Part shown: piece by piece, positions 12,118 to 62,221 of the stretch
How the letters are laid out: the number at the start of each line of letters is the position of its first letter
How positions within the stretch are numbered: the stretch's first letter is position 1
Notes under the pieces: generated by a model
The model's input: only the letters and a program-made list of their open reading frames with translations
What the model was told of the DNA's origin: nothing
Databases searched by the model: none
Program-made: the position numbers and the translations under genes
Assembly: GCA_964589625.1 (NCBI GenBank)
Contig: CAZPSH010000002.1
Location: 68,469-132,468 of the forward strand
Source of the DNA: an uncultured Thermoanaerobaculia bacterium
GTDB taxonomy: Bacteria > Acidobacteriota > UBA4820 > DSQY01
Length of the DNA stretch: 64,000 bases
Direction: 5' to 3'

Positions 12118-12170
12118 TCGCCAGAAGCTCCCTTCGATCTCCCTGTCCTGAAATCCAGCTCCGCGTATCC

Positions 12171-12205
12171 AAATCCGAAATCCCAAATCCCAAATCCCAA
12201 ATCCC
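12171..12205. repeat. tandem heptamer repeat (AAATCCG/AAATCCC)x5 in pilR-GT2 intergenic region
   Basis: Plus strand aaatccg aaatccc aaatccc aaatccc aaatccc directly read; an additional gaaatcc ~20 nt upstream. Confidence 0.8.
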
Positions 12206-12209
12206 CTCC

Positions 12210-13592
12210 TCACGCCTCCCTGGCCTGCAACCCGTACTTCTTCACGAAGTACCTCATGGACCGGAAGGTGATCCCGAGGCGGGCGGCGGCCCGCGTCATG
12301 ATCCCGCCTTCGAGTTCCAGGGCCCGCTGCAGGTAGGCCGCGCGGATCCCCTCCAGGGTATCCGTCAGCGAGAACCCCTCGTCGGGAATCTGGACCCCGG
12401 CGAGATCGGGCAGGGGGCGGGCCCCGAGGAGAGGGTCGGGCAGGTGGCGAAGGTCGATGTGGTCCCCATCGCACAGGGCCATGGCCCTCTCCATGCAATT
12501 CTCGAGTTCCCGCACGTTTCCCGGCCAGGGGTAATTCTCCATCCGCCTCAGGGCCTCGGCGCTCAGGGAGGGTATTTCCCGGCCCATGAGGCGGGCGTAT
12601 TTTTCGAGGAAGTGCCGGGCGAGGAGGGGGATGTCCTCCCGTCGCTCCCTCAAGGGGGGGAGCGCGACCGTGATGACGTTGATCCTGTAGTAGAGGTCCT
12701 CGCGAAAACGTTTTTCCTGGATGAGCCGGGGGATGTCCTGGTTGGTGGCGGCCACCACCCGCACGTCCGTCGGGTGCTCCTCCTCGCCCCCCACGGGACG
12801 GACGGTCCGCTCCTGGAGGGCTCGCAGGAGCTTGACCTGCATGGCCGGCGACATCTCGGCGATTTCGTCCAGGAAAAGGGTTCCACCCTGGGCGGTGTCG
12901 AAAAGCCCTTTCTTCGAGGCGTGGGCCCCGGTGAAGGCGCCCTTCACGTGGCCGAAGAGCTCGCTCTCGAGGAGCGTCTCGGGGATCCCCCCGCAATTCA
13001 CGGGGACGAAGGGGCGGCGCGAACGGGGGGAGCGCTGGTGCAGGGTCCTCGCCACGAGCTCCTTTCCGGTGCCGCTCTCCCCTTGGATCAAGATCGTGCT
13101 GGGGGTGGGGGCCACCCTCTCGACGAGGGCGAAGACCGCCTTCATCCGGGAATTCGCCGCCACGAGGCCCCCGAACTGTTCCTTCCGGGCCAGCTCCTCC
13201 CTCAGGAGGACGTTCTCCTCGGCCAAACGCCGCTTCTCGAAGGCGTGGCGGACGATGTTGCTCAGTTCCTCCACCTGGAAGGGCTTGGTGATGTAATCGA
13301 AGGCGCCCAGCTTGAGGGCCTCGATGGCGGACTCCGTGCTGGAATAGGCCGTCATGAGGATGACCTCGGTGGGGGCCTCCTCCTGGCGGATGCGCTTCAG
13401 GAGTTCGAGTCCCGACAACCCCGGCATCCGGATATCGGACAGGACCAACTCGAAGGGCGAGTGGGCCAGGGCCCTAAGGGCCTCCTCGGCGCTCGCCGCC
13501 GTGACCACCCCGTAGCCTTCCTCGCGAAAGAGGATTTCGAGCATCTTCCGCATGGAGGCTTCGTCGTCCACGATGAGGATGCGCTCAGGCAT
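12210..13592 (-). CDS. pilR: sigma-54-dependent response regulator (NtrC family), PilR-like
   Basis: Start MPERILIVDDE (receiver); AAA+ sigma-54 activator motifs GESGTGKE, GAFTGA, ESELFGH; C-terminal Fis-type HTH; start overlaps pilS stop by 8 nt. Confidence 0.85.
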   Translation of the reverse strand: MPERILIVDDEASMRKMLEILFREEGYGVVTAASAEEALRALAHSPFELVLSDIRMPGLSGLELLKRIRQEEAPTEVILMTAYSSTESAIEALKLGAFDYITKPFQVEELSNIVRHAFEKRRLAEENVLLREELARKEQFGGLVAANSRMKAVFALVERVAPTPSTILIQGESGTGKELVARTLHQRSPRSRRPFVPVNCGGIPETLLESELFGHVKGAFTGAHASKKGLFDTAQGGTLFLDEIAEMSPAMQVKLLRALQERTVRPVGGEEEHPTDVRVVAATNQDIPRLIQEKRFREDLYYRINVITVALPPLRERREDIPLLARHFLEKYARLMGREIPSLSAEALRRMENYPWPGNVRELENCMERAMALCDGDHIDLRHLPDPLLGARPLPDLAGVQIPDEGFSLTDTLEGIRAAYLQRALELEGGIMTRAAARLGITFRSMRYFVKKYGLQAREA

Positions 13593-16556: not shown

Positions 16557-17699
16557 CTATCGGCCCGGGACGGCCCCCCTCGGAGGAACCACGGGGCCTG
16601 GAGGGCCCACGCGGCGGCTCTGGAGCGTCATATTGCGATTGATGAGCTCTTGCAGTTCGTCGGGCATGGACGACCGGGACAAGGCGGTTTCCAGGTCGAG
16701 CTTCCCCCGCAGGTAGAGGTCCGCGAGGGACTGGTTGAAGGTCTGCATCCCGCTACCGGTCTGGCCGGTCTGCATGATGGAGTAGATCTGGTGGATCTTG
16801 TCCTCCCGGATGAGGTTTCGGATGGCCGCGTTGGGCACCATGATCTCCACCGAGAGGCACCGGCCCTTCCCGTCGCGCGTGGGCAGGAGGGACTGGCACA
16901 GGATCCCCTGGAGGACAAAGGAGAGCTGGGTGCGAACCTGGGACTGCTGGTGGCTCGGGAAGACGTCCACGATGCGGTTGATGGTCTCCACCGTCGAGTT
17001 GGTGTGGAGGGTGGCGAAGGTGAGGTGCCCCGTCTCGGCGATCCTCAGGGCCGCCTCGATGGTCTCCAGGTCCCGCATCTCGCCGATCAGGACCACGTCG
17101 GGGTCCTGGCGGAGGATGCTCTTGAGCGCGTTCTTGAAGGAGTACGTGTCGGCGCCGATCTCCCGCTGGTTCACCACGCAGGCCTTGTGGGGGTGGAGGT
17201 ACTCCACAGGGTCTTCGATGGTGACGATGTGCTCGTGCCGCTCGCGGTTGACCTTGTCGATCATGGCGGCCAGGGTGGTGGACTTGCCCGAGCCCGTGGG
17301 CCCCGTCACCAGGATGAGCCCCCGCGGCCTCTCCGCCATCCGCTCGACCACGGAGGGCAGGCCGAGCTCCTGGAAGCCGCGAATCTCGTAGGGGATGGTC
17401 CGGAAGGCGCCGGCCACCGCCCCGCGCTGGCTGAAGATGTTTCCGCGGAAGCGGCTGAGGCCCTTGATCCCGAAGGAGAGGTCCAGCTCCAGGTTCTCCT
17501 CGAACTTGTGCTTTTGCTGGTCCGTGAGGATGGAGTAGCAGAGCTGCTTGGTCTCGGCGGCGCTGAGCGGCTTGATCCCCTCGATGGGCTGAAGCTTCCC
17601 GTGGATGCGCACCTGGGGCGGGGAGTTGACGGTCAGGTGGAGGTCCGAGCCCCCGTTCTCCACGAGGAACTTCAGGAGCTGGTGGATGGACACGCTCAT
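16557..17699 (-). CDS. pilT: twitching motility retraction ATPase PilT
   Basis: Walker A GPTGSGKST, Asp box, Walker B VVLIGEMRD, His box TLHTNS, PilT-specific AIRNLIRE motif; 380 aa. Confidence 0.9.
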   Translation of the reverse strand: MSVSIHQLLKFLVENGGSDLHLTVNSPPQVRIHGKLQPIEGIKPLSAAETKQLCYSILTDQQKHKFEENLELDLSFGIKGLSRFRGNIFSQRGAVAGAFRTIPYEIRGFQELGLPSVVERMAERPRGLILVTGPTGSGKSTTLAAMIDKVNRERHEHIVTIEDPVEYLHPHKACVVNQREIGADTYSFKNALKSILRQDPDVVLIGEMRDLETIEAALRIAETGHLTFATLHTNSTVETINRIVDVFPSHQQSQVRTQLSFVLQGILCQSLLPTRDGKGRCLSVEIMVPNAAIRNLIREDKIHQIYSIMQTGQTGSGMQTFNQSLADLYLRGKLDLETALSRSSMPDELQELINRNMTLQSRRVGPPGPVVPPRGAVPGR

Positions 17700-17711: not shown

Positions 17712-19427
17712 CTACAAAACGGTTTCCCGGACCACCTCGTCGATGGTCGTGATTCCCTTCGAGATCTTGATGAGGCCCGACCGCCGCAGCGTGATCATAC
17801 CCTCCTCGAGGGACTGGCGCTTGAGCTCCACGGCGTTGGCCCCCATGAGGACCATCTCCCGGAGCTGGTCGCTCATCTCCATGACCTCCATGAGGGCGAT
17901 GCGGCCCTTGTAACCGCTGTTGTTGCAGGTGGGACAGCCGCGTCCCTTGTACACCTTCGTCGTCTCCGCCTCCTCCTCCGTGTAGCCGAGGTCCAGCAGG
18001 GCCTTTCGGGGTATCTGCACCTCCTCCTTGCAGTCCCTGCAGATGCGCCGTATGAGGCGCTGGGCCTGGATGAGGTGAACGGAGGTGGCCACCAGGAAGG
18101 GCTCGATGCCCATGTTCATGAGCCGGCTGATGGTGGAGGGGGCGTCGTTGGTGTGGAGGGTGGAGAGGACCATGTGCCCGGTGAGGGCGGCCTTGACGCC
18201 GATTTCGGCCGTCTCGAAGTCGCGGATCTCTCCCACCAGGATGACGTTGGGGTCCTGCCGGAGGAAGGCCCTCAGGGCCGAGGCGAAGTTGAGGCCGATG
18301 CCCTCCTTCATCTGCACCTGGTTGCACCCCTGGATGTTGAACTCTACGGGGTCCTCGGCGGTCATGATGTTGGTCTCGGGCGTGTTCAAGCGGCCCACGG
18401 CGGAGTAGAGGGTATTGGTCTTGCCCGAGCCGGTGGGTCCCGTGACCAGCACCATGCCGTAAGGCTTCAGGATGGCCCGCTCGAACTTCTTGAGGCTCTC
18501 CTCCTCGAAGCCGAGCTGAGTCATGTCGAGCTTGAGGCCCTCCTTGTCGAGAAGCCGCATGACGATCTTCTCGCCGTATAGGGTGGGCACCGTGGAGACC
18601 CGGTAGTCGATCTCCTTGCTCTTGTTGTCGATCTTCATCCGCATCTTGATGCGCCCGTCCTGGGGGAGGCGTTTCTCGGCGATGTCCAGCTTCGCCAGGA
18701 TCTTGATGCGGGAGGCGATGGCCTCCTTGAGCTTCATGGGCGGGCGGAGGATCTCGTAGAGAACTCCGTCGATGCGGAACCGGACCCGAAAGTCCTTCTC
18801 GTAGGGCTCGATGTGGATGTCGCTGGCCCCCCGGCGGACGGCGTCCGTCATGACGACGTTGCAGAGTTTGACCACGGGGGCGTCCTGGCTGGCCGCCTCG
18901 AGGTCCTCGGCGGAGATCTCGCCGTCCTCCTCCTCGACTTCGAGGTCCGCCACCTCCTCCTTCTGGATCTCGTCCATGATCGCCTTGAGCTGGATGTCGT
19001 GGGTGGAGCCGTAGTACTTGGCGATGGCCTCCCGGATGGAGGCCTCGGAGGCCACCACGGGTTCCACTTGGTAGCCCGTGATGAACCGGATGTCGTCCAG
19101 GGCGAAGACGTTGGAAGGGTCGGCCATGGCCACCGTCAGGGTGGCCCCCGTGCGCTCGATGGGGATCACGAGGTATTTCTGGGCAACGTCTGAGGGGATG
19201 TGCTTGAGGACCGACTCGTCGATCTCAAAGTGCTCGAGATGGATGGCCGGCACCCCGTATTGCTCCGAGAGGAGCGAGGTGATGTCCTCCTCCTTGACGT
19301 GGCCGAGGCGGACGAGGTTGTAGCCGAGCTTGCCGCCGTTGCTCTTCTGGAGGGCCAGAGCCTCTTGCAGCTGCTGCTGCGAGATGAGTCCCACCTTGAG
19401 AAGCATCTCACCCAAGCGTTCAGCCAT
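17712..19427 (-). CDS. pilB: type IV pilus assembly ATPase PilB (GspE family)
   Basis: Start MAERLGEMLLKVGLISQQQL (N1 domain); Walker A GPTGSGKTNTLY, VILVGEIRD, TLHTNDA, C-terminal CPTC tetracysteine; upstream ORF extension is low-complexity. Confidence 0.9.
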   Translation of the reverse strand: MAERLGEMLLKVGLISQQQLQEALALQKSNGGKLGYNLVRLGHVKEEDITSLLSEQYGVPAIHLEHFEIDESVLKHIPSDVAQKYLVIPIERTGATLTVAMADPSNVFALDDIRFITGYQVEPVVASEASIREAIAKYYGSTHDIQLKAIMDEIQKEEVADLEVEEEDGEISAEDLEAASQDAPVVKLCNVVMTDAVRRGASDIHIEPYEKDFRVRFRIDGVLYEILRPPMKLKEAIASRIKILAKLDIAEKRLPQDGRIKMRMKIDNKSKEIDYRVSTVPTLYGEKIVMRLLDKEGLKLDMTQLGFEEESLKKFERAILKPYGMVLVTGPTGSGKTNTLYSAVGRLNTPETNIMTAEDPVEFNIQGCNQVQMKEGIGLNFASALRAFLRQDPNVILVGEIRDFETAEIGVKAALTGHMVLSTLHTNDAPSTISRLMNMGIEPFLVATSVHLIQAQRLIRRICRDCKEEVQIPRKALLDLGYTEEEAETTKVYKGRGCPTCNNSGYKGRIALMEVMEMSDQLREMVLMGANAVELKRQSLEEGMITLRRSGLIKISKGITTIDEVVRETVL

Positions 19428-19471: not shown

Positions 19472-19502
19472 AGTGTAGTTTGCAGCTTGCTGCAAAGTCA
19501 AG
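19472..19502 (-). promoter_or_regulatory. candidate sigma-70 promoter (TTGACT-N18-TACACT) upstream of pilB with embedded palindrome TTGCAGC-AA-GCTGCAA
   Basis: Read on minus strand; 45-75 nt upstream of pilB start. Confidence 0.3.
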
Positions 19503-19524
19503 GGAATGACCTTCTATACCCATC

Positions 19525-19608
19525 GAGGGATTGGGGTGCCCTCGAGCCGAAGGGGAGAGGGCGCCGAGGGTGGGGTGAGGCTCCACGGGCTTTGCCCGTG
19601 GAGCGGGG
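19525..19608. repeat. GC-rich ~85-nt dispersed repeat, copy A (contains 12-bp perfect hairpin GGCTCCACGGGC-TTT-GCCCGTGGAGC)
   Basis: ~90% identical to reverse complement of ~26385..26480; translated junk ORFs on both copies share RDWGALEP...GWGEAP...PVERG. Confidence 0.7.
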
Positions 19609-19665
19609 CCCCGAAGGGAAGCCCTCGCACGGACGGGCTTCGCCTGCCGAGGGTCGCGATCTGCC

Positions 19666-20178
19666 TCAGAAGGGGGCGAAGCCGCTCTCGGACCAGAAGT
19701 CCGAGCGGATCCCGTTGTAGAGGGTCTGCAGGGCGTCGAGGTGCTGCTTCTCCCAGTCCGCCAGGAACTGGTAGAAGTCCCTCACTTCCGACTCGGTCGC
19801 GCCGCGGGCCGCGTCGCTGAAGTAGGCGATGGCCCTGGACTCGAGGGTCATGCCCACGGAAAGGACCCCCATTTCGAAATCCGCCCCCTGAGCCTGCTCG
19901 CGGAACTTGTCCGAGAAGATCGAGTCCGTAAAGGCCTTCAGATCGGGCGTCTTCCGCTCCAGGGCGAAGGCGGAGGTCCCCTTTTCCTCGTACCTCCCCA
20001 TGATGCCCTTCAAGTAGGCCTTGTGCTGGATCTCGTCGTTGGCCAGCTTTTCGAAGAGTTCCTGAACGGCCGGCTTGGTGGCCCGGTCCGCCGTCATGCT
20101 GTAGAAGGTGTACCCGTCCACTTCGATCTGGTAGGCCTTTCTCAGGACCTCCCGGATCGCATCCTTCGGTTCGGTCAT
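19666..20178 (-). CDS. rubrerythrin/ferritin-like domain protein
   Basis: 170 aa with E..E..H pairs (ANDEIQHKAY, ADWEKQHLDAL) typical of diiron ferritin-like fold. Confidence 0.65.
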   Translation of the reverse strand: MTEPKDAIREVLRKAYQIEVDGYTFYSMTADRATKPAVQELFEKLANDEIQHKAYLKGIMGRYEEKGTSAFALERKTPDLKAFTDSIFSDKFREQAQGADFEMGVLSVGMTLESRAIAYFSDAARGATESEVRDFYQFLADWEKQHLDALQTLYNGIRSDFWSESGFAPF

Positions 20179-20229
20179 CTCAGGCTCCTTCCCGGCGTAT
20201 CCTCCTCCGGGCTCCGGCGAATGCCGCGG

Positions 20230-24413: not shown

Positions 24414-25203
24414 GGCCGCTCCCCCGCCTTCCCCGTCCGAGCGGGCCGGGCGCCCGGTCCTCGCCGCCGGGGGTCTTGAAGGTCCCAAGCGGGTAGTAGG
24501 GAAGCATGTTCTTTTCCAGCCAGGCCGTGGCCTCCGCGGGAGGGATCCCCCAGTTCGTGGGGCACGTGGAGAGGATCTCCACGAGGGAGAAGCAGACGTT
24601 CTCCTTCTGGTACCGGAAGGCCGTCCGGAGCATCTCCTTGGCCGCCACCGCGTGGAGGGGCGAGTGGACGGAGGCCCGCGCCACGTAGGCCGGCGTCCTC
24701 AGCGTGCTGACGAGTTCGGCCACGCGAATGGGCCATCCGGCCAGGTTCACGTCCCGGCCCAGGGGGCACGTGGTGGCCACCTGGCCGGGCATGGTGGTGG
24801 GTGCCATTTGTCCGCCCGTCATGCCGTAGATCGCGTTGTTCACGAAGACCACGGTGACCTTCTCGCCTCGGTTGGCGCAGTGGATGATCTCGGCCATCCC
24901 GATGGAGGCCAGGTCGCCGTCGCCCTGGTACGAGAAGACGATGAGGTCGGGGCGGGCCCGTTTCACGCCCGTGGCCACCGCCGGCGCCCGGCCGTGGGAG
25001 GCCTCGTGGAAGTCCGTGGCGAAGTAGTTGTAGGCGAGCACGGAGCATCCGACGGGTGCGATGCCCACGGTCCGTTCCCGCAGGCCCAATTCGTCGATGA
25101 CTTCCCCCACGAGCCGGTGGATGACGCCGTGGGTGCACCCGGGGCAGTAGTGGGTCGTCACATCCGCGAGGGCTTCGGGTCGCCGGAAGACGGTCTCAGC
25201 CAT
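24403..25203 (-). CDS. porB: 2-oxoacid:ferredoxin oxidoreductase beta subunit (TPP-binding)
   Basis: CPGCTHG Cys motif, GDGD...N TPP-binding motif (SYQGDGDLASIGMAE...NNAIYGMTGGQ). Confidence 0.85.
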   Translation of the reverse strand: MAETVFRRPEALADVTTHYCPGCTHGVIHRLVGEVIDELGLRERTVGIAPVGCSVLAYNYFATDFHEASHGRAPAVATGVKRARPDLIVFSYQGDGDLASIGMAEIIHCANRGEKVTVVFVNNAIYGMTGGQMAPTTMPGQVATTCPLGRDVNLAGWPIRVAELVSTLRTPAYVARASVHSPLHAVAAKEMLRTAFRYQKENVCFSLVEILSTCPTNWGIPPAEATAWLEKNMLPYYPLGTFKTPGGEDRAPGPLGRGRRGSGHAE

Positions 25204-26290
25204 GGGCCACCTCCCCGGACCGGCCGGCGGCGATGGCCCGGATCTGTTCGGCCACCTCCTCGGGCGCGGCGAGCATCCCGCCCTGGCGTCCGAAGAAGTG
25301 AACGGGCCGCGTTCCCAGGAGGGCGAGCTGCACGTCCTCCACCATTTGGCCGGTGGAGAGCTCCACGACGAGCACGGCCTTGGCCTTCTGGGCGGCGCGG
25401 CGGACCTGTTCGTAGGGGTAGGGGAAAAGCGTTACGGGGCGGACCATGGCGGCCTTCACGCCTTCCGCGCCCAAGTCCTCGATGGCCGTGGAGCAGACCC
25501 TCGCCACGGTCCCGTAGGCCACCACGAGGACGTCGTAGTCCGCCTCGGTGCCGTATTCGACCCAGCGGACCTCGTCGCGGACCATGGCCGCGTACTTGGC
25601 TTGGAGCTTCTGGTTGTGGTGCTCGAGAACCTGCGGGTCCAGGAAGAGGGAGTTGATGATGTTGGTGGCCCTGCCGCCCTTGCAACCGGTGGCCGCCCAG
25701 TCCTTGGGGGGGAGGGGCTTGCAGGGCACCCGGCCGGTCCGAAATTCCACGGGCTCCATCATCTGGCCGATGAGGCCGTCTCCGAGCACCATGACCGGAT
25801 TCCTGTAGTAATCCGCCAGGTCGAAGGCGTCCTGGACCAGGTCCGCGGCTTCCTGGACCGACCAGGGCGCCAGCACCAGAAGCCTGTAGTCGCCGTGGCC
25901 GCCTCCCTTCGTGGCCTGGAAGTAGTCCGCCTGGCTCGGGAGGATGCCTCCCAGCCCGGGGCCGGCGCGCATGATGTTCACGACGACGCAGGGAAGCTCG
26001 CTTCCGGCGAGGTAGGAAATTCCTTCCTGCATGAGGGAGATCCCCGGGGAGCTCGAGGAGGTGAACACCCGCTCCCCGCTCCCCGCCGCCCCGTACAGCA
26101 TGTTGGAGGCCGCCACTTCGCTCTCCGCCTGCACGAAGGTGCCGCCCACCTGGGGCAGGCGGTGGGACATGTACTCGGGGATTTCGTTCTGGGGCGTGAT
26201 GGGGTAGCCGAAGAACAGCCGGCATCCCGCCTGGATGGCGGCCTCACCGATGGCCTCCGAGCCCTTCATCAGTTTCTTGGCCATGGCCAC
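25196..26290 (-). CDS. porA: 2-oxoacid:ferredoxin oxidoreductase alpha subunit
   Basis: 364 aa, KGSEAIGEAAIQAGCRLFFGYPITPQNEI N-terminus typical of POR/KOR alpha; stop overlaps porB start. Confidence 0.85.
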   Translation of the reverse strand: MAMAKKLMKGSEAIGEAAIQAGCRLFFGYPITPQNEIPEYMSHRLPQVGGTFVQAESEVAASNMLYGAAGSGERVFTSSSSPGISLMQEGISYLAGSELPCVVVNIMRAGPGLGGILPSQADYFQATKGGGHGDYRLLVLAPWSVQEAADLVQDAFDLADYYRNPVMVLGDGLIGQMMEPVEFRTGRVPCKPLPPKDWAATGCKGGRATNIINSLFLDPQVLEHHNQKLQAKYAAMVRDEVRWVEYGTEADYDVLVVAYGTVARVCSTAIEDLGAEGVKAAMVRPVTLFPYPYEQVRRAAQKAKAVLVVELSTGQMVEDVQLALLGTRPVHFFGRQGGMLAAPEEVAEQIRAIAAGRSGEVAHG

Positions 26291-26384
26291 GCTCCTTCAG
26301 TCGCGAATTCCGCGGTCAAACGGCTCTTCCTTACGAGAAGCGCCCGCGTACACCGCGGAATACAAGTCTTCTCCTCGACGGGAA

Positions 26385-26480
26385 GGGGCCGTTCCCTCCC
26401 CGCTCCACGGGCCAAGCCCCTGGAGCTTCACCCCACCCTTGGCGCCCGCTCGCCTCCGGCTCGAGGGCTCCCCAATCCCT
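26385..26480. repeat. GC-rich dispersed repeat, copy B (inverted orientation relative to copy A; approximate ends)
   Basis: Reverse complement aligns with 19525..19608 at ~90% identity including hairpin (one stem mismatch); lies in unusual 270-bp gap between porD and porA. Confidence 0.65.
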
Positions 26481-26562
26481 TGGCGGGTGAAGGCGATCTC
26501 TTTCGTGCGTTGTCGATTCATTTTTCCGCCGTTCCTTTCCAACTTCCAACGCGGGATTGAGG

Positions 26563-26796
26563 TCAATAGGCGAAGTAGTGGTACAGGGTGCCGTGGACGC
26601 GCATCTCGATGGCCACGTCGGGGCAGGTGATGCAGCAAAGGCGGCACCCGATGCAGCGCTTCTGCTCCTGCATCCTCGCGTAGAAATAGCCCTTGGAGTT
26701 GATGTCCCGGGCCATTCCGAGGATCTTCTGGGGGCAGGCCTGCACGCAGAGTTCGCACCCCTTGCAGCGTTCGGGGTCGATCACGATTTGGGGCAC
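26563..26796 (-). CDS. porD: 2-oxoacid:ferredoxin oxidoreductase delta subunit (2x[4Fe-4S] ferredoxin)
   Basis: GTG start preceded by AAGGAG (7 nt); VPQIVIDPERCKGCELCVQACP ... CIGCRLCCITCP; 77 aa. Confidence 0.7.
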   Translation of the reverse strand: MPQIVIDPERCKGCELCVQACPQKILGMARDINSKGYFYARMQEQKRCIGCRLCCITCPDVAIEMRVHGTLYHYFAY

Positions 26797-42977: not shown

Positions 42978-44357
42978 TCACTCCGACGGGCTCCGGGAGG
43001 AATCCCCGGATCGCCCCTTGCGGGGGCGGTGAACGGCAGGGTCGAGCCCCAGTTCGGAGAGACGCTCGTAGAGCCGGGAGCGGCTCAGATGAAGGAGGCG
43101 CGCCGCCGCCGCCACGTTCCCCCGGGCCTTCTCCAGGGCGTCTGAAATGGCCCGGGACTCGGCGTTCTGGCGCACCCCCTCCAGGGACCCGGGAGGCGAT
43201 CCGACCCGCCCCTGGCGCACCTCGGGAGGCAGGTGGCCGGGCTCGGGGAGGCCCGGGCCCGAAAGAAGGGCGGCCCGCTCCACGGCCCACCGGAGCTCCC
43301 GCACGTTCCCCGGCCAGGAGTACTCCTTCAGCGCCTTCAAGAAGGCCGAAGGGAGAGGCGACGCCGGCCATCCCTGGCGCAGGCGCGCCTCGTCGAGGAA
43401 ATGCTGGGCGAGAAGGGGCAGGTCCTCCGGCCGCTCCCTCAAAGGAGGGACGCGGAGGGGGAGGCCGGCGATCCGGTAGAGGAGGTCCTCCCGGAAGGCC
43501 CCGTCCCGAGCGCGGGTCCGTAGGTCCCGGTGGGTGGCGGCCAGCACCCGGACCCGCACCGCGACGGGCCGATCGGCCCCCACCGGCTCAACGGTTCCGT
43601 CCTCGATGGACCGCAGAAGCTTGGCCTGGAGGGGAAGGGGAAGGTCTCCCACCTCGTCCAGGAAGAGGATCCCCCCGTCGGCGGTCTGGAACTTCCCCTT
43701 CCGGGGCGCGTCGGCGCCGGTGAAGGCGCCCTTGATGTGGCCGAAGAGTTCGGACTCGGCGAGGCTCTCGGGAAGGGCGGCGCAGTTGAGGGCCACGAAG
43801 GGACCCAGGGACTGGGGGCTCCGGGCGTGGATCCATCGGGCGAGCACCTCCTTGCCCGAGCCCGTCTCGCCCTGGATCAACAGGGGGGCGGGAGAGGCGG
43901 CCAGCCTCCGGGCTTCCTCGAGCACGGCGCCCATGGCGGGAGAGGCCGTCAGGAAAACTCCGGGCTGGGATTCGGAGGCCTTCCGCTGGAGAGCCGACTG
44001 GCGGGCGGCGTTCCGCACCGTGATGAGGAGGCGCTCGCGGTCCAGGGGTTTCTGGAGGAAGTCGAAGGCGCCGGAGCGGACGGCGGCCACCGCGGCGGGA
44101 ATCGTGCCGTGGCCGGAGATCATCACGACGGAGGTGGAAAGGGCCTGGTTTCGGGCGGCCTCGAGAACGGCCGTGCCCTCGCGATCGGGGAGCCGGAGGT
44201 CCACGAGGGCCACGTCGGGAGGGGGTTCCCGCTGGAGGGCGGAGATCGCCGCCGCGGCGCCGGACGCCTCCCGGACGGCGTACCCCTGCCGCTCGAGAAT
44301 TTCCCTCAGGGCGTCCCGGATGGCGGCTTCATCGTCGACGATGAGAACGGTAGGCAT
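42978..44357 (-). CDS. sigma-54-dependent response regulator (NtrC family), no cognate kinase adjacent
   Basis: Start MPTVLIVDDE; GETGSGKE, GAFTGA, ESELFGH; C-terminal HTH. Confidence 0.8.
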   Translation of the reverse strand: MPTVLIVDDEAAIRDALREILERQGYAVREASGAAAAISALQREPPPDVALVDLRLPDREGTAVLEAARNQALSTSVVMISGHGTIPAAVAAVRSGAFDFLQKPLDRERLLITVRNAARQSALQRKASESQPGVFLTASPAMGAVLEEARRLAASPAPLLIQGETGSGKEVLARWIHARSPQSLGPFVALNCAALPESLAESELFGHIKGAFTGADAPRKGKFQTADGGILFLDEVGDLPLPLQAKLLRSIEDGTVEPVGADRPVAVRVRVLAATHRDLRTRARDGAFREDLLYRIAGLPLRVPPLRERPEDLPLLAQHFLDEARLRQGWPASPLPSAFLKALKEYSWPGNVRELRWAVERAALLSGPGLPEPGHLPPEVRQGRVGSPPGSLEGVRQNAESRAISDALEKARGNVAAAARLLHLSRSRLYERLSELGLDPAVHRPRKGRSGDSSRSPSE

Positions 44358-51164: not shown

Positions 51165-51232
51165 GAATCCCCAACTCCCCTTGGGTTTCGGAGTTCGAAA
51201 TCCGAAATTCGACATCCGAAATCCGGCCCCCC
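51165..51232. repeat. GGATTTCG-rich intergenic element between BMC-P1 and BMC-P2 (related to 12171..12205 heptamer repeat)
   Basis: Minus strand GGATTTCGGATGTCGAATTTCGGATTTCGAACTCCGAAACCC...GGGGATTCGGGATTGGGG; only non-overlapping junction in the shell operon. Confidence 0.6.
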
Positions 51233-53341: not shown

Positions 53342-53418
53342 GCGCCCGTGGCTCAATTGGATAGAGCATCGGCCTACGGAGCCGGGGGTTGCAGGTTCGA
53401 GTCCTGCCGGGCGCACCA
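53342..53418 (+). tRNA. tRNA-Arg (anticodon ACG)
   Basis: 77 nt cloverleaf folded by hand: acceptor GCGCCCG/CGGGCGC, D-arm GCTC-AATTGGATA-GAGC, anticodon arm TCGGC-CTACGGA-GCCGG, T-arm GCAGG-TTCGAGT-CCTGC, encoded CCA. Confidence 0.8.
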
Positions 53419-57364: not shown

Positions 57365-60300
57365 TTGAGGATGCACAAAACGTTGAGAACGCGGCTCGTG
57401 GGGATCGGCCTGGTGGTCGCCCTGCTGGCGCTCGCCGTTCCGGCTCTCGCCCAGAACACGTGGCAAAGGCAGTCCACGGTCATGGGCGTCCCCGGGGCGA
57501 ACTTCCCCACGCCCCCGATGGCGATCTGGTCCAACCCGGGAGGCGTTGTGGACGTCGGCACCGCCGGCGGCGGGTACCCTGGCGGAAACCTGGGCTACCT
57601 GTATGAATCCGGGCTCGGAAACTACGGTGTCAATTTCGATTTTCAGGTGACGCCCCCCGGTCCGGCGGCCGATGACTTCACGGCCGTCACGTGGGACGGA
57701 GCCGTGTCCTACGTCGGCAACTGGAACACGGGCCTCTGGGTGTCCAGTGGAGGCATCTGGACCAACGTGTCCGCCGGCGTGCCCTCGGTGAACCAGCACG
57801 TCCAGTGCATCACGTGGGATCCCAGCGCGCCCACGGGCACCCTTCCCCACGACGTCTTCTTCGGCACCTGGGGTAGCGGCGCCTACATGTACGAGGGGAC
57901 CACCTTCACCCAGATCTTCGATCCCCTCTTCGACCTGGTGGACGGCGCCGCCGCCACGCCGGGCATGTACTTCGTCCACGACATCGCCGTGAAGCAGGCC
58001 AACTGCCCGACCACCCCCCGCCTGGTCTTCCTCGCCACGGATGGCGGCGGCCTCCTGCGCGGCACCCAGTCCTGCACCACGGGCCTCTGGTCCTGGAGCC
58101 AGGTCTACGATGCGGACCTCTACATCTACGACGTGACCTACGACTACGCAACGGGTTCCCTCTTCATCGGCACCCAGCAGCACGGCATCCAGCTCTCCAC
58201 GGATGACGGCGCCTCCTGGACCACGCTGTCCGCCTCTCCGGCCATTACGACGCCGGTGACGGACATCCAGTTCGGCGGCTACCCGAACTTCATCTTCGCC
58301 GGCACCCTCGGCCAGGGCGTGTTCCGCTACGACAGCGACGCCGGCTCCTTCTACCAGATCAACAACGGCTATGGCGCCGCCGACATGAACGACCCGAACG
58401 TCCACTGCATCTTCTGGAACGCGGCGGACGGGTACCTCTACGCCGGAACCTCCGACGCGGCGACCCCCACGGCGGGCAACGTGTGGAGCATCAACCTGGT
58501 GCCCTTCACGGGGACCTTCACGCCCACGACGCCCCTCGAGGTCGGTGACGCGGTGAACGACTGCGTGGCCGTGACCCTCGCCAACCAGGCGCCGGCCAAC
58601 TGGACGGCCGCCATCACGCTGGGCTCCCTGCCCCCGGGCATGGCCCCCACGGTGGACAACGTCCCCTATCCGCCGGCCGCCTGCATCGCCGGCGCGCCCA
58701 CGGAGGACGGCTGCTACGACGCCACCCTCACGGTGTGGGACGCCCTCATCAACCGCACCGACTTCGCCAACGCCGACTACACCGTGACCCCCGGCGTGGC
58801 CATCGACGCCCAGCCCAACCCCGCCCAGTACGGCATGCTGGTCCAGTTCACCAGCGCCGTGACGGGCGCCACGGGCACCGTCACCTACGCCTGGGACTTC
58901 GACGTGACCAACGTGTCCCTGCTCTGGCTCCCGGGCACCGACACGAGCACCGAGGCCAACCCCGTGGTCCTCTTCCCCGAGGCCGGCCTCTACCAGGTGG
59001 ACCTCACCGTCACCGACACGGGCGCCGCGGGCGGCTGCACCGTCTCCACGACGAAGACCATCCTCGTCGAGGTGGTGGGCAACCTGGTGGTGGACCCCAA
59101 CGCCACGATCGTGGGATCGGGCGCTCAGTTCCAGTTCTGGGCCAACGTCTCCGGCGGCGTGCCCATGTGCGTGACGCCGAGCGGCTACACCTTCGCCTGG
59201 ACCTTCGTAGACGTGCAGACGGGCGCCACGATCACGACCAGCACCCTCGAGAACCCCGTCATCACCTTCCCCTACACGGGCACCTTCAAGGGCACGGTCA
59301 CCGTGACGGACTGCTCGGGCCACACGGCCACGGGCTTCTGCGTGGTGAACTACAACGGCTTCATGTCGGCCACCGTCTCCTCGGTCTGCAACCCCGGCCC
59401 CACGGGCGTGCCCGTCGCCTTCTACGTGTCGGCGCACAGCATCAGCCCCTCGGCCACGCCTCCGTACACCGTGACCTTCTCCTGGGGTGACGGGACCCCC
59501 GACGTGATCGTGCCCACGATCACGGGCTTCGGCGGCTTCGAGGAGGCATTCCAGCTTCACACCTACGCCGCGGCGGGCACCTACGACGTGCTCATCTCCA
59601 TCTTCGACGGCGGCTCCAACACGACGCTGGTGCCCTACACCCAGACCATCTATCCGCAGTTCACGGGCATCACGATCGCGGCCAACCCCAACCCCGCCTC
59701 GGGCTGCGACCTGCACATCGGCGAGACCATCACCTTCACCGTGACGCCCGTGGGTGGCATCGCGCCGTACCTCTACTCCATCGACTTCGGCGACGGCTCC
59801 ACGGCCACCGTGACCCAGAGCGGGCCGGCGACCTTCAGCCACGCCTACGCCGCGGCCGGCACCTACACGGTCCGCGCCTACGTCACCGATAGCGGCAACT
59901 GCGCCACGACGAACTCGGCCACCTACGGTCCCTTCAACGTGGTGGCGGAGCCCACGGCCGCCGTCACCGTGAACGGCCTGAACTGCAACACGGGCGGCTT
60001 CGGCGTGGAGATCCCGAACTTCGGCGTGAACCCGCTGGCCGTGGCCCTCGGCGCGACCTACACGGCCTTCGCCGGCCACACCGTGAACTACACCTGGACC
60101 TACAACAACAACTGGGCCGCCGACGACCCCGACACCTACAGCAACTCGGTGGTTTCCCCGGCGCCCATCCCCGACTTCATCGAGAACTTCTACCTGGGCT
60201 CCGAGTCCTACCGGACCTTCACCGCCACCTTCACGCTCACCGACACGGGCTTCTGCGTGAACGACACGGTGCTGACCCGGACCATCACCTTCACGATCTA

Positions 60301-62221
60301 CAACCCGCTGGCCGTCAGCGCCCCCTCGTGGGAGCAGGCGTGCGGCTCCATGGCCGTGACCTTCAACGCCTCGGCCAGCGTCTTCGGCGGTATCCCCGGC
60401 TACTACTACGTGTGGAACTTCGGTGACGGCTCGAGCGCCGGACCCTTCACGAACCCCGGCCCCATCACCCACACCTACGCCGCCCCCGGCGAGTACGACG
60501 CCCAGCTGACCGTGACGGACAGCGCGGTGCCGAACTGCACGGGCACGGCCAACACGGCCAACGTCATCTTCCACGTGACGGTGGTGGAACCCTTCGCCGG
60601 CACGGCCTCGGCCTCCCCGACGGTGGGTTGCTCCCCGCTGTGGGTTGACTTCACCTCCAACGTGACCGGCGGCGGACAGCCCGGGACCAACCTCCAGCTC
60701 CGCTGGACGGCGACGGACGGCTGGGACACCGGCTGGGGCGCCTCGGCCACCCCGAGCCACACCTTCACGGCCGCGAGCAGCACGGTCTACTCCTGGTACC
60801 TGTACGCGCGCTCGGGAATCTACAACCCCTACGAGTGCCTGATCGCCTCCGGCGACATCCAGGTGGACGTGGCGGCCTCGAACCTCGTGATCGTGCCCAC
60901 CTCGACCTCCGACTACATCCCGCTCGACGACACCTTCACGACGACCTGGAACGACGGCAGCGCGCCCATCACGCTGACCTACACCCTGACCCGCATCAAG
61001 GACAAGGACGGCAACTTCATCACCCCCGAGGTCACCACCCGGACGGTGACGAACGCCACCTCGCCCTACCAGTTCACCTTCACCTTCGAGAAGACCGGAA
61101 CCTGGACGGTGGTCTGCAACCTGTCCGACGTCTGCACCGCGTCGCTGGCCAGCAACACCGTGACGATCCAGGTCCTCGACACGCCGGCCCTCACCGTGAC
61201 GACCCAGACCCTCATCAACGGCGTCATCGGCACCTCGGGCCTCGCCCCCCTCACCGTGAACTTCTCCTCCGTGCCCCAGGGCGGCGTGCCTCCCTATACC
61301 TTCCTCTGGAACTTCGGTGACGGCACCAACAGCACGGCCCAGAACCCCATCAAGACCTACAACCTTACCGGCCCGTACGATGTGGTCCTCACCGTGACCG
61401 ACTCCTACCCGGCCGCCGCCGGCGGGCCCCAGACGGCCACCGCCAACATCCACATCACCGTCTACGCCCCGCTGACCGCCACCGCCACCGGCGCGCCCAC
61501 GACCCTCATCACGGGCGGCACCGTGAACTTCTCCGCCAGCGTCATGGGGGGCACGGGCTCCTACACCTATGCCTGGACCTTCGGCGACGGCGGCGTGGGC
61601 ACCGGCGCGGCTCCGGCCCACCAGTACCTCACGGCCGGCACCTACTTCGCGCGGGTCCGTGTGACCGACACGGCCACCAACTTCGTGGACAGCAACGACG
61701 TCGTCATCCGGGTGTACAGCCCCGTCGCCGTCGCGGCCTCCGCCACGCCCAGCACCGTCATCCTCGGCAACTCGGTGACCTTCACGGCCCTGGCTTCGGG
61801 TGGCAGCGGCAATTACACCATCGAGTGGAGCTTCGGCGACGGCACCACCGGAACGGGCGCCACGGCCAACAAGACCTACACCACGATCGGCACGAAGAAC
61901 GTGACCGTTACCGTGACCGACACCCAGCTCGCCAGCAACACCATCACCCAGAACCTCACGGTCATCGTGAAGCCCGTTCCTCCGCAGATCCTGTCCTCGA
62001 AGAAGCTCACGGATCCCTTCCGGATCGTGCTCTACGGGACGAATTTCCAGAGCGGCTGCACGGCAACCATCAACGGCACGGGCGTCACGGTGAAGTTCGT
62101 AAGCAGCGGCAAGATCAAGCTGCTCAACGCCAAGAGCCTCTGCCCCAAGGGCGTGCCCGTCACCATCGTGGTCACGAACCCCGACACCGGCGTCTCCAAC
62201 CCCTATCAGTTCACCAGGTAA
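57365..62221 (+). CDS. giant secreted PKD-repeat / IPT-TIG domain cell-surface protein
   Basis: RBS GGAATAGGAGG; signal peptide MRMHKTLRTRLVGIGLVVALLALAVPALA; >=7 PKD signatures (WxFGDG...Y: WNFGDGSSAGPF, FSWGDGTPDV, IDFGDGSTATV, WNFGDGTNSTAQNP, WTFGDGGVGTGAAP, WSFGDGTTGTGATA); C-terminal IPT/TIG-like domain. Confidence 0.8.
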   Translation: MRMHKTLRTRLVGIGLVVALLALAVPALAQNTWQRQSTVMGVPGANFPTPPMAIWSNPGGVVDVGTAGGGYPGGNLGYLYESGLGNYGVNFDFQVTPPGPAADDFTAVTWDGAVSYVGNWNTGLWVSSGGIWTNVSAGVPSVNQHVQCITWDPSAPTGTLPHDVFFGTWGSGAYMYEGTTFTQIFDPLFDLVDGAAATPGMYFVHDIAVKQANCPTTPRLVFLATDGGGLLRGTQSCTTGLWSWSQVYDADLYIYDVTYDYATGSLFIGTQQHGIQLSTDDGASWTTLSASPAITTPVTDIQFGGYPNFIFAGTLGQGVFRYDSDAGSFYQINNGYGAADMNDPNVHCIFWNAADGYLYAGTSDAATPTAGNVWSINLVPFTGTFTPTTPLEVGDAVNDCVAVTLANQAPANWTAAITLGSLPPGMAPTVDNVPYPPAACIAGAPTEDGCYDATLTVWDALINRTDFANADYTVTPGVAIDAQPNPAQYGMLVQFTSAVTGATGTVTYAWDFDVTNVSLLWLPGTDTSTEANPVVLFPEAGLYQVDLTVTDTGAAGGCTVSTTKTILVEVVGNLVVDPNATIVGSGAQFQFWANVSGGVPMCVTPSGYTFAWTFVDVQTGATITTSTLENPVITFPYTGTFKGTVTVTDCSGHTATGFCVVNYNGFMSATVSSVCNPGPTGVPVAFYVSAHSISPSATPPYTVTFSWGDGTPDVIVPTITGFGGFEEAFQLHTYAAAGTYDVLISIFDGGSNTTLVPYTQTIYPQFTGITIAANPNPASGCDLHIGETITFTVTPVGGIAPYLYSIDFGDGSTATVTQSGPATFSHAYAAAGTYTVRAYVTDSGNCATTNSATYGPFNVVAEPTAAVTVNGLNCNTGGFGVEIPNFGVNPLAVALGATYTAFAGHTVNYTWTYNNNWAADDPDTYSNSVVSPAPIPDFIENFYLGSESYRTFTATFTLTDTGFCVNDTVLTRTITFTIYNPLAVSAPSWEQACGSMAVTFNASASVFGGIPGYYYVWNFGDGSSAGPFTNPGPITHTYAAPGEYDAQLTVTDSAVPNCTGTANTANVIFHVTVVEPFAGTASASPTVGCSPLWVDFTSNVTGGGQPGTNLQLRWTATDGWDTGWGASATPSHTFTAASSTVYSWYLYARSGIYNPYECLIASGDIQVDVAASNLVIVPTSTSDYIPLDDTFTTTWNDGSAPITLTYTLTRIKDKDGNFITPEVTTRTVTNATSPYQFTFTFEKTGTWTVVCNLSDVCTASLASNTVTIQVLDTPALTVTTQTLINGVIGTSGLAPLTVNFSSVPQGGVPPYTFLWNFGDGTNSTAQNPIKTYNLTGPYDVVLTVTDSYPAAAGGPQTATANIHITVYAPLTATATGAPTTLITGGTVNFSASVMGGTGSYTYAWTFGDGGVGTGAAPAHQYLTAGTYFARVRVTDTATNFVDSNDVVIRVYSPVAVAASATPSTVILGNSVTFTALASGGSGNYTIEWSFGDGTTGTGATANKTYTTIGTKNVTVTVTDTQLASNTITQNLTVIVKPVPPQILSSKKLTDPFRIVLYGTNFQSGCTATINGTGVTVKFVSSGKIKLLNAKSLCPKGVPVTIVVTNPDTGVSNPYQFTR

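Follow-up and report, generated by a model that had tools for sequence, protein, structure and literature searches.

A GC-rich sequence of about 90 nt, containing a strong hairpin, occurs twice and in opposite orientations in the 64-kb stretch of DNA analyzed here, which is referred to as the window. The question raised by these two loci is whether the repeat is a cis-regulatory RNA or a DNA-level element able to move. The initial annotation had favored the latter, in the form of a MITE-like element, an assignment now supported by the presence of many copies, by defined ends, target-site duplications and an empty site, by the lack of an orientation rule and by the lack of Rfam matches. With high probability, the repeat is the internal core of a non-autonomous MITE of about 260 nt, which has spread in a clade of uncultured, GC-rich Acidobacteriota. 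The family is previously uncatalogued, while the kind of element is well known.

The repeat pair in the window

A repeat search of the 64-kb window identifies an inverted pair of 91 nt, 88% complementary, located at 19518-19608 on the plus strand (copy A) and at 26398-26488 on the minus strand (copy B). The latter had been placed at about 26385..26480: its existence is confirmed, while its limits are corrected. By direct count, 80 of the 91 bases are identical. Two sub-motifs of the repeat have matches at copies A and B only, with none expected from shuffled sequences, and an nhmmer profile, built from the repeat pair, finds no third copy in the window; the repeat is therefore real, and present just twice in this stretch.

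All genes flanking the two copies lie on the minus strand. Their names have Pfam support: pilT (16557-17699) and pilB (17712-19426) are followed by a rubrerythrin-family gene (19666-20178, stop codon at 19666-19668), by a Fe-S/NuoEFG-like block, which the gene list places between the rubrerythrin gene and the por genes, by genes listed as porG, porB and porA (porA at 25196-26284, with its ATG at 26284) and by porD (26563-26796), encoding a 77-aa PorD. At copy A, the G-rich strand runs antisense to pilB, and at copy B it has the sense orientation of the por genes, in agreement with the opposite orientations, relative to same-strand genes, described originally.

The strong hairpin, named P2 in the following, is also found, with a stem of 11 bp instead of the 12 bp first reported. 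The stem, GCTCCACGGGC/GCCCGTGGAGC, is perfect in copy A, where it encloses a TTT loop (19580-19604, plus strand), and contains one G.G mismatch in copy B (26402-26426, minus strand).

Other repeated sequences are present in the window. Tandem arrays of 7 nt (CCAAATC / CCGAAAT) occur at two distant sites, 12154-12211 and 51195-51224. Blocks of 68 and 104 nt, 72-76% identical and both offset by exactly 30789 nt, are shared by 12483-12707 and 43272-43496, which are probably two paralogous genes. The region at ~58650-61900 holds many imperfect direct repeats, 36-57 nt long and spaced by about 250-900 nt: they encode recurrent ..Y.F.W.FGDG.. motifs, and look like tandem protein domains of a large surface protein. 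The only Rfam match in the window is a tRNA gene, at 53342-53415 (+), scoring 66.9 bits.

Extent and organization of the family

When the flanks of relatives are lined up, homology extends beyond the originally described interval by about 95 nt on each side. Complete copies are about 260 nt long, start with CCCCAATCCCGCGATGGAA and end with TTCCATCGCGGAATTTGGG, thus featuring a terminal inverted repeat of about 19 bp; the inverted ends of the family are CCCCAATCCCGCGATGGAA and the reverse complement of CCCAAATTCCGCGATGGAA. The start of the original repeat (..CAAGGGATTGGGG) turns out to be a third copy of the terminus, oriented like the right end. The order within the element is therefore: 5' terminus, variable left arm of about 65 nt, internal terminus copy, hairpins P1, P2 and P3, variable right arm, 3' terminus. 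What had been described as a 90-mer element is a DNA element indeed, but its extent was underestimated, the 90-mer being the internal core of an element which, at copy B, measures 261 nt.

In a second subfamily, CCCGGATTTTGC is found at all three terminus positions, while the core is unchanged. The internal terminus copy covaries with both termini between subfamilies (GGGATTGGGG vs GCAAAATCCGGG). Element lengths range from 260 to 485 nt, and cluster at about 260, 315, 370, 425 and 480 nt, because the loop of P3 hosts a 53-nt hairpin unit (CCCGAAAGGCAACCCGAGCGTTCCGCCTGGCTTCGCCAGCGGAACGCGAAAGA), present in 0-4 tandem copies. The GC content of the element is about 65-70%.

Counting copies and looking for target-site duplications had been proposed in the initial annotation; dozens of copies are indeed found in relatives and metagenomes, as well as 5-bp duplications, described in the next section. 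A 22-mer from the core (GGGCNNNGCCCGTGGAGCGGGG) has 58 matches in GTDB (one genome per species), 33 of which are in Acidobacteriota MAGs, with up to 13 in a single MAG and many at contig ends; the remaining matches, in Streptomyces and others, have the 22-mer alone in common. In JGI metagenomes, an 18-mer from the 5' terminus leads to at least 120 loci, holding at least 177 elements, at least 69 of them full-length. In viral contigs the core has no matches, and the terminus only one, a chance match in a coding sequence.

Variants which share the ends, but are devoid of the core, are found in L170, L109 and L128, and include a form of about 120 nt; since such variants exist, the core is not obligatory. 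In L128, a composite of 1228 nt is found, the left arm of which hosts another inverted-repeat element, of unrelated sequence. This unrelated non-coding repeat, with inverted ends CTGTCCAAAAYA, spans L128:9690-10478 and is also present in L073, L109, L140, L158, L167 and L177; its nesting in the left arm generates composites of 660-1228 nt. From its sequence, it looks like another MITE family of the same organisms.

No convincing ORF is contained in the element, even in the 1228-nt composite. The translations of the repeat had been suspected of seeding false families of small proteins: this does not seem to be the case, as a search of 5.8 billion predicted proteins gives no relative of the 72-aa ORF that spans copy B.

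Short-read contigs from the organism of the window either end at the border of the repeat (L001, L192) or, in the case of L003, run into a third, divergent copy with other flanks. Contigs ending at a repeat, or jumping through it, are typical of assemblers meeting a multi-copy sequence. L003, a contig of a sister sample, is collinear with the window as far as the P2 loop and then continues, within 1034-1173, into a different copy of the element, located by another gene start (ATGGTCAAGTCG...); two origins can be proposed, a chimera made in assembly across the repeat or a genuine third copy in the organism.

Target-site duplications, empty sites and genomic localization

Target-site duplications were evaluated on 85 non-redundant elements, the boundaries of which were set by the profile, independently of the flanks. 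A 5-bp duplication is exact in 26 of the 85 elements, and matches at four of five positions in 18 more; at control offsets of 6, 9 and 13 nt, no exact 5-bp match is found for any of them. The duplicated pentamers are diverse, indicating the absence of a strong target motif.

An empty site is available for copy B. In seven contigs, encoding an identical 77-aa PorD (L182, L184-L187, L189, L190), the porD-porA junction is just 10 nt long (...CTATTAGGAGCGCGGCCATGG), while the site is filled in the window, in L183 and in L188; the same porD-porA insertion is carried by MAG014 (L016).

Genomic localization was evaluated by a crude gene call, based on codon-position GC: of the 68 elements with two close neighbours, 67 are intergenic. 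Between co-directional genes, 17 are in sense and 24 in antisense orientation; 11 elements lie between convergent and 16 between divergent genes.

These data bear on another possibility, the duplication at two loci of either a cis-regulatory leader or riboswitch, or a small-RNA gene with its own transcription. The predicted fold is stable and its pairing conserved, and several copies end 10-50 nt upstream of a start codon, all of which would be compatible with such a role. The element is found, however, in either orientation, next to unrelated genes and also between convergent gene ends, is absent from the orthologous loci of close relatives, and features transposon ends and target duplications. 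In addition, no Rfam family matches the element, either at the gathering score or at E-values up to 10, so that the Rfam scan suggested initially reveals no known riboswitch or RNA family at the copies. No terminator-like site, with a T run behind a GC-rich hairpin, is found at copy A or copy B, on either strand, nor any promoter-like site in copy B. Taken together, the orientation census, the lack of Rfam matches and the lack of terminator- or promoter-like sites rule out a riboswitch, a leader or a terminator, and a duplicated RNA of any of these kinds is regarded as extremely improbable.

Two related candidates were rejected. A mobile 5'-leader, suggested by the copies located just upstream of start codons, is not in agreement with the orientation census. 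An internal promoter, TTGAAG-17-TATCAA, is visible in a single subfamily, within the left arm, and is conserved neither in the window nor in the remaining subfamilies.

Prokaryotic MITEs are typically shorter than 500 bp and lack coding capacity. The family described here is short and non-coding, has terminal inverted repeats and a duplication of fixed length, is present in many copies with unrelated flanks and shows presence/absence polymorphism. Neither a segmental duplication, containing the only two copies, nor a riboswitch match, both considered at the outset as evidence to the contrary, is found. The other types of element then listed as possible, namely a REP sequence, a recombination site or a transcription-insulating site, are not needed to account for the data.

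Copy B, between porD and porA

Copy B is a complete MITE of 261 nt, located at 26302..26562 on the minus strand, with its G-rich strand co-directional with the por genes. By nhmmer, using a profile built from 14 full-length relatives, positions 1-259 of 262 align to window positions 26562-26305. The gap between porD and porA measures 278 nt (26285-26562), 261 of which are occupied by the element. Copy B had been correctly assigned to an anomalous gap next to porD, given as 270 bp; as relatives with an identical PorD have a 10-nt junction without the element, the gap, besides being slightly longer, is created by the insertion itself.

The 5' terminus of copy B, CCTCAATCCCGCGTTGGAA (26544..26562, minus strand), corresponds to the consensus CCCCAATCCCGCGATGGAA, and begins one base past the porD stop codon. 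The internal third terminus copy, CACCCGCCAAGGGATTGGGG (26470..26489, minus strand), is oriented as the 3' terminus and coincides with the start of the original repeat. It is followed, on the same strand, by P1 with its inner helix P1b (26444..26468), defined by consensus structure and covariation and containing one T.C mismatch, by P2, and by P3, GGGGAGGG-AACGG-CCCCTTCCC (26380..26401), the loop of which hosts, in relatives, the 0-4 tandem 53-nt modules. The 3' terminus, TTTGACCGCGGAATTCGCG (26302..26320, minus strand), is degenerate when compared to the consensus TTCCATCGCGGAATTTGGG.

The target-site duplication consists of ATTGA on the left (26563..26567, minus strand), which includes the porD stop codon TGA, and of ACTGA on the right (26297..26301, minus strand), matching at four of five positions; directly next to it comes AGGAG, the ribosome-binding site of porA, whose ATG is at 26284. 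The junction before insertion, reconstructed as TATTGAAGGAG, and the empty site of the relatives, TATTAGGAG, differ at 2 nt. The empty sites belong to a slightly different lineage, where other substitutions in the flanks are found too.

Copy B is an old insertion of a complete element, placed precisely at the stop codon of porD. Since the duplicated target leaves porD its stop codon and porA its ribosome-binding site, the operon survives, carrying a structured spacer of 261 nt.

Copy A, upstream of pilB

Copy A is a partial remnant of the MITE, located at ~19509..19662 on the plus strand and antisense to both pilB and the rubrerythrin gene. By nhmmer, it aligns to positions 57-182 of 262 only. 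It contains the last 10-20 nt or so of the left arm, the internal terminus copy TACCCATCGAGGGATTGGGG (19517..19536, plus strand), P1 (19538..19562, plus strand), with a perfect outer stem of 6 bp, P2 and one 53-nt hairpin module, CCCGAAGGGAAGCCC...CGCGATCT (19610..19662, plus strand), which is matched to the tandem unit of relatives and ends 3 nt before the rubrerythrin stop codon. Outer termini are absent, as is a target duplication; an origin by transposition would nonetheless be likely, given the content shared with complete copies. The order of rubrerythrin and pilB is kept in two relatives (L193 and L197, with rubrerythrins 91% and 78% identical), where the spacer is devoid of the element.

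A sigma-70-like, promoter-like site for pilB, TTGACT-18-TACACT, is found at 19472..19501 on the minus strand, outside of the element. The site is native: the pilB leader of about 85 nt, including it, is conserved in L193, where the element is absent. Copy A abuts this site, lying 8 nt upstream of the -35 hexamer. A sequence at ~19433 (CCCCGGTCCCCCTTTGGAAAACG) was considered as a decayed 5' terminus of copy A and rejected, since the region from 19427 to ~19508 is conserved in the element-free L193 and holds the promoter-like site.

In L193, 225 nt of a different, GC-rich sequence are found in the rubrerythrin-pilB spacer. Variation also affects the distance between the genes for the 4Fe-4S ferredoxin and rubrerythrin, from 51 nt in the window (20179-20229) to 144-168 nt in the relatives (L193:1357-1500, L197:1333-1500). 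Both spacers seem, from these comparisons, to turn over quickly. Exact look-ups with the Fer4 protein and PilT, aimed at more relatives of the copy A locus, returned the window's own lineage only.

Conserved secondary structure

The ability of the family to form a common secondary structure was evaluated on 17 subfamily representatives. Over five helices, 94.3% of the cells are paired, while at most 57% are when partners are slid. Changes on both sides are found at 13 pairs, and the covariation score is 0.242, compared to 0.126 in shuffles, none of which, out of 500, reaches the observed value. In P1, four of the six pairs show both-sided changes, as in the versions GCCCTC/GAGGGC, GCTCCC/GGGAGC, GCATTC/GAATGC and GCCTTT/AAAGGC. 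P2 is found in three sequence versions: GCTCCACGGGC/GCCCGTGGAGC, GCTCCGCGGGC/GCCCGCGGAGC and CCCTCCGCTGGC/GCCAGCGGAGGG. The pairing between the 5' terminus and the internal terminus copy covaries as well, as would be expected if the same transposase binds both. For the G-rich strand, the folding energies correspond to z-scores of -4.2 and -3.2.

In a comparison addressing which strand folds, G.U pairs outnumber A.C mismatches, 42 vs 24 overall, an asymmetry dominated by one inherited change and reversed in P1, so that either strand may be the folding one. In copy B, which is old and shared by a lineage, mismatches are found in both P1 and P2, and the variant in L188 has more of them. Pairing kept across subfamilies, together with the mismatches in the old copy B, suggests that the structure serves the element itself: pairing would be maintained in propagating element lineages, not at fixed insertions, and the hairpins would act in the propagation or stability of the element, rather than on adjacent host genes.

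A rival reading takes the hairpin core for a cargo with a function of its own, as structured RNA or single-stranded DNA, which might stabilize or process mRNA, give rise to a small RNA or form a cis-acting structure needed in mobilization; conserved pairing would then reflect this function, instead of being an accident of descent. The pairing of P1, P1b and P2 survives both-sided changes although the arms, and even the termini, differ, and the three versions of P2 and the folding z-scores point in the same direction; copy B, moreover, is necessarily co-transcribed with the por operon. The lack of preference in orientation relative to genes speaks against such a function, as do the absence of promoter-like sites, terminator-like sites and Rfam families at copy B, the mismatches tolerated in a fixed copy and the existence of core-less variants with the same ends; palindromes, furthermore, pair as well in DNA. 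A functional cargo is accordingly considered unlikely, and it is equally doubtful that the hairpins and the expandable 53-nt array, instead of being filler, have been selected as a structured nucleic-acid module. If they had, the module might be a cis-acting DNA or RNA structure, required for mobilization by an IS1380/piggyBac-like transposase or by a host factor; alternatively, it might be a mobile RNA element, tolerated or exploited in operons, for example by uncoupling or stabilizing the porD and porABG messages. In either case, a MITE with a functional structured core would fall outside the standard picture, where the ends suffice.

The putative mobilizing enzyme

As a non-coding MITE, the element would be moved in trans by a DDE transposase, able to bind its termini and to make staggered cuts in the target, 5 bp apart, from which the 5-bp duplications would arise. 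There are good grounds for proposing that the enzyme is an IS1380-family transposase: the assignment is based on termini starting with CC(C) and ending with (G)GG, on the 5-bp duplication, within the 4-5 bp expected of this family, and on the ISEcp1-like ends. When compared to the 14-bp inverted repeats of ISEcp1 (IRL CCTAGATTCTACGT, IRR ACGTGGAATTTAGG; PMC7864471), the termini reach, at best, 11 matching positions out of 14 (P about 4e-5 per comparison); the value of 11 is reached by the 5' terminus of copy B against the reverse complement of IRR. ISEcp1 generates 5-bp direct repeats too (PMC6061673). The ends of piggyBac start with CCC, and IS1380 is its prokaryotic relative (PMC10813416).

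IS1380 members mobilize adjacent DNA by using alternative right ends (PMC9330008). The layout of the element, with a left end, a right end, extra DNA and a second right end, mirrors this type of mobilization, and the three termini may have arisen as in the "transposition units" of ISEcp1 and ISPme1, through a second right-end-like site located downstream of a mini-element of about 95 nt. The element differs from ISEcp1 and ISPme1 in being about 260 nt long and devoid of a transposase gene, compared to about 1.6 kb, and in that its second right end is a good copy of the terminus, not a chance look-alike; its own IS1380 membership is a probable one.

An autonomous partner, as expected for a MITE in the genomes that host it, was searched in the flanks, by looking for fuzzy, inverted terminus pairs at a distance of 0.9-3.5 kb with a transposase between them. 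No autonomous element or transposase with these termini is found in the flanks of about 200 loci, amounting to about 1.4 Mb. MAG and short-read assemblies often lose insertion sequences. Two candidates were discarded: the one in L128 is the 1228-nt non-coding composite, while in L170 chance terminus pairs surround ordinary genes.

A derivation from Tn3 was also considered. Miniature elements of this type (TIMEs) are related to the Tn3 family, feature inverted repeats of about 38 bp, starting with GGGG, and generate a 5-bp duplication. The duplication fits, but the termini of the family described here begin with CCC and match the Tn3 inverted repeat (IRL) at only 0-6 of 14 positions, so this origin was rejected.

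Comparison with known families of repeats

REP and BIME sequences, described in Enterobacteria and Pseudomonas, are GC-rich extragenic palindromes in modular arrays, often located in operons, where they can stabilize the upstream mRNA; they are linked to RAYT and have neither terminal inverted repeats nor duplications. The resemblance to the element is evident in its GC-rich, intergenic, imperfect palindromes, in its mosaic, modular build and in the tandem hairpin units. A repeat of this type, spread by a RAYT (Y1) transposase without target duplication, is nonetheless very improbable, the defining features of REP/BIME not being found in the Acidobacteriota element: terminal inverted repeats of 19 bp and target duplications of 5 bp are present in complete copies, the unit is at least 260 nt long, instead of 20-40 nt, and no association with RAYT is seen in the flanks examined. 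Partial copies, such as copy A, do look REP-like; the same holds for QMITE2 fragments, lacking inverted and direct repeats, in Coxiella burnetii (PMC10969869).

The comparison with MITEs is closer. QMITE2 and the Correia elements (CREE) of Neisseria are MITEs as well, with transcripts folding into long, stable stem-loops, but they are AT-rich, and their whole length forms one palindrome from the two ends, whereas here the internal hairpins covary independently of the termini. Chunjie, a MITE of Geobacter uraniireducens Rf4 (Chen et al. 2008, as summarized in PMC10969869), is similarly small and non-coding, with conserved terminal inverted repeats and direct repeats; for both, tens of copies are found, variable in length and in many cases partial and devoid of ends, and one copy lies within an operon. 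Sequence and host phylum are different, and only the Acidobacteriota element features a third internal terminus, covarying GC-rich hairpins and the 0-4 tandem 53-nt modules.

Prokaryotic MITEs are usually AT-rich and need only their ends (PMC10969869). Compared to this standard, the high GC content, the third terminus copy, the covarying internal hairpins and the expandable hairpin array are unusual; the covarying core hairpins, in particular, are at odds with it, as simple parasitism does not require them. Full-text literature searches retrieved no published description of the family, and a 2024 review of prokaryotic MITEs does not mention Acidobacteria.

Conclusions

The described element is a typical selfish one, and reveals nothing special about the pilus or pyruvate metabolism. 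Its identification accounts for the 278-nt split between porD and porA-porB-porG and for the GC-rich block upstream of pilB, and explains breaks in the short-read assemblies of these Acidobacteriota. The termini, the 5-bp duplication and the profile provide a marker for repeat masking, for strain typing by presence or absence and for the search of an IS1380-like transposase. Finally, base-pairing within a MITE is preserved here by compensatory changes, although the termini should suffice for movement: this raises the question of a function for the structure, which can be tested.
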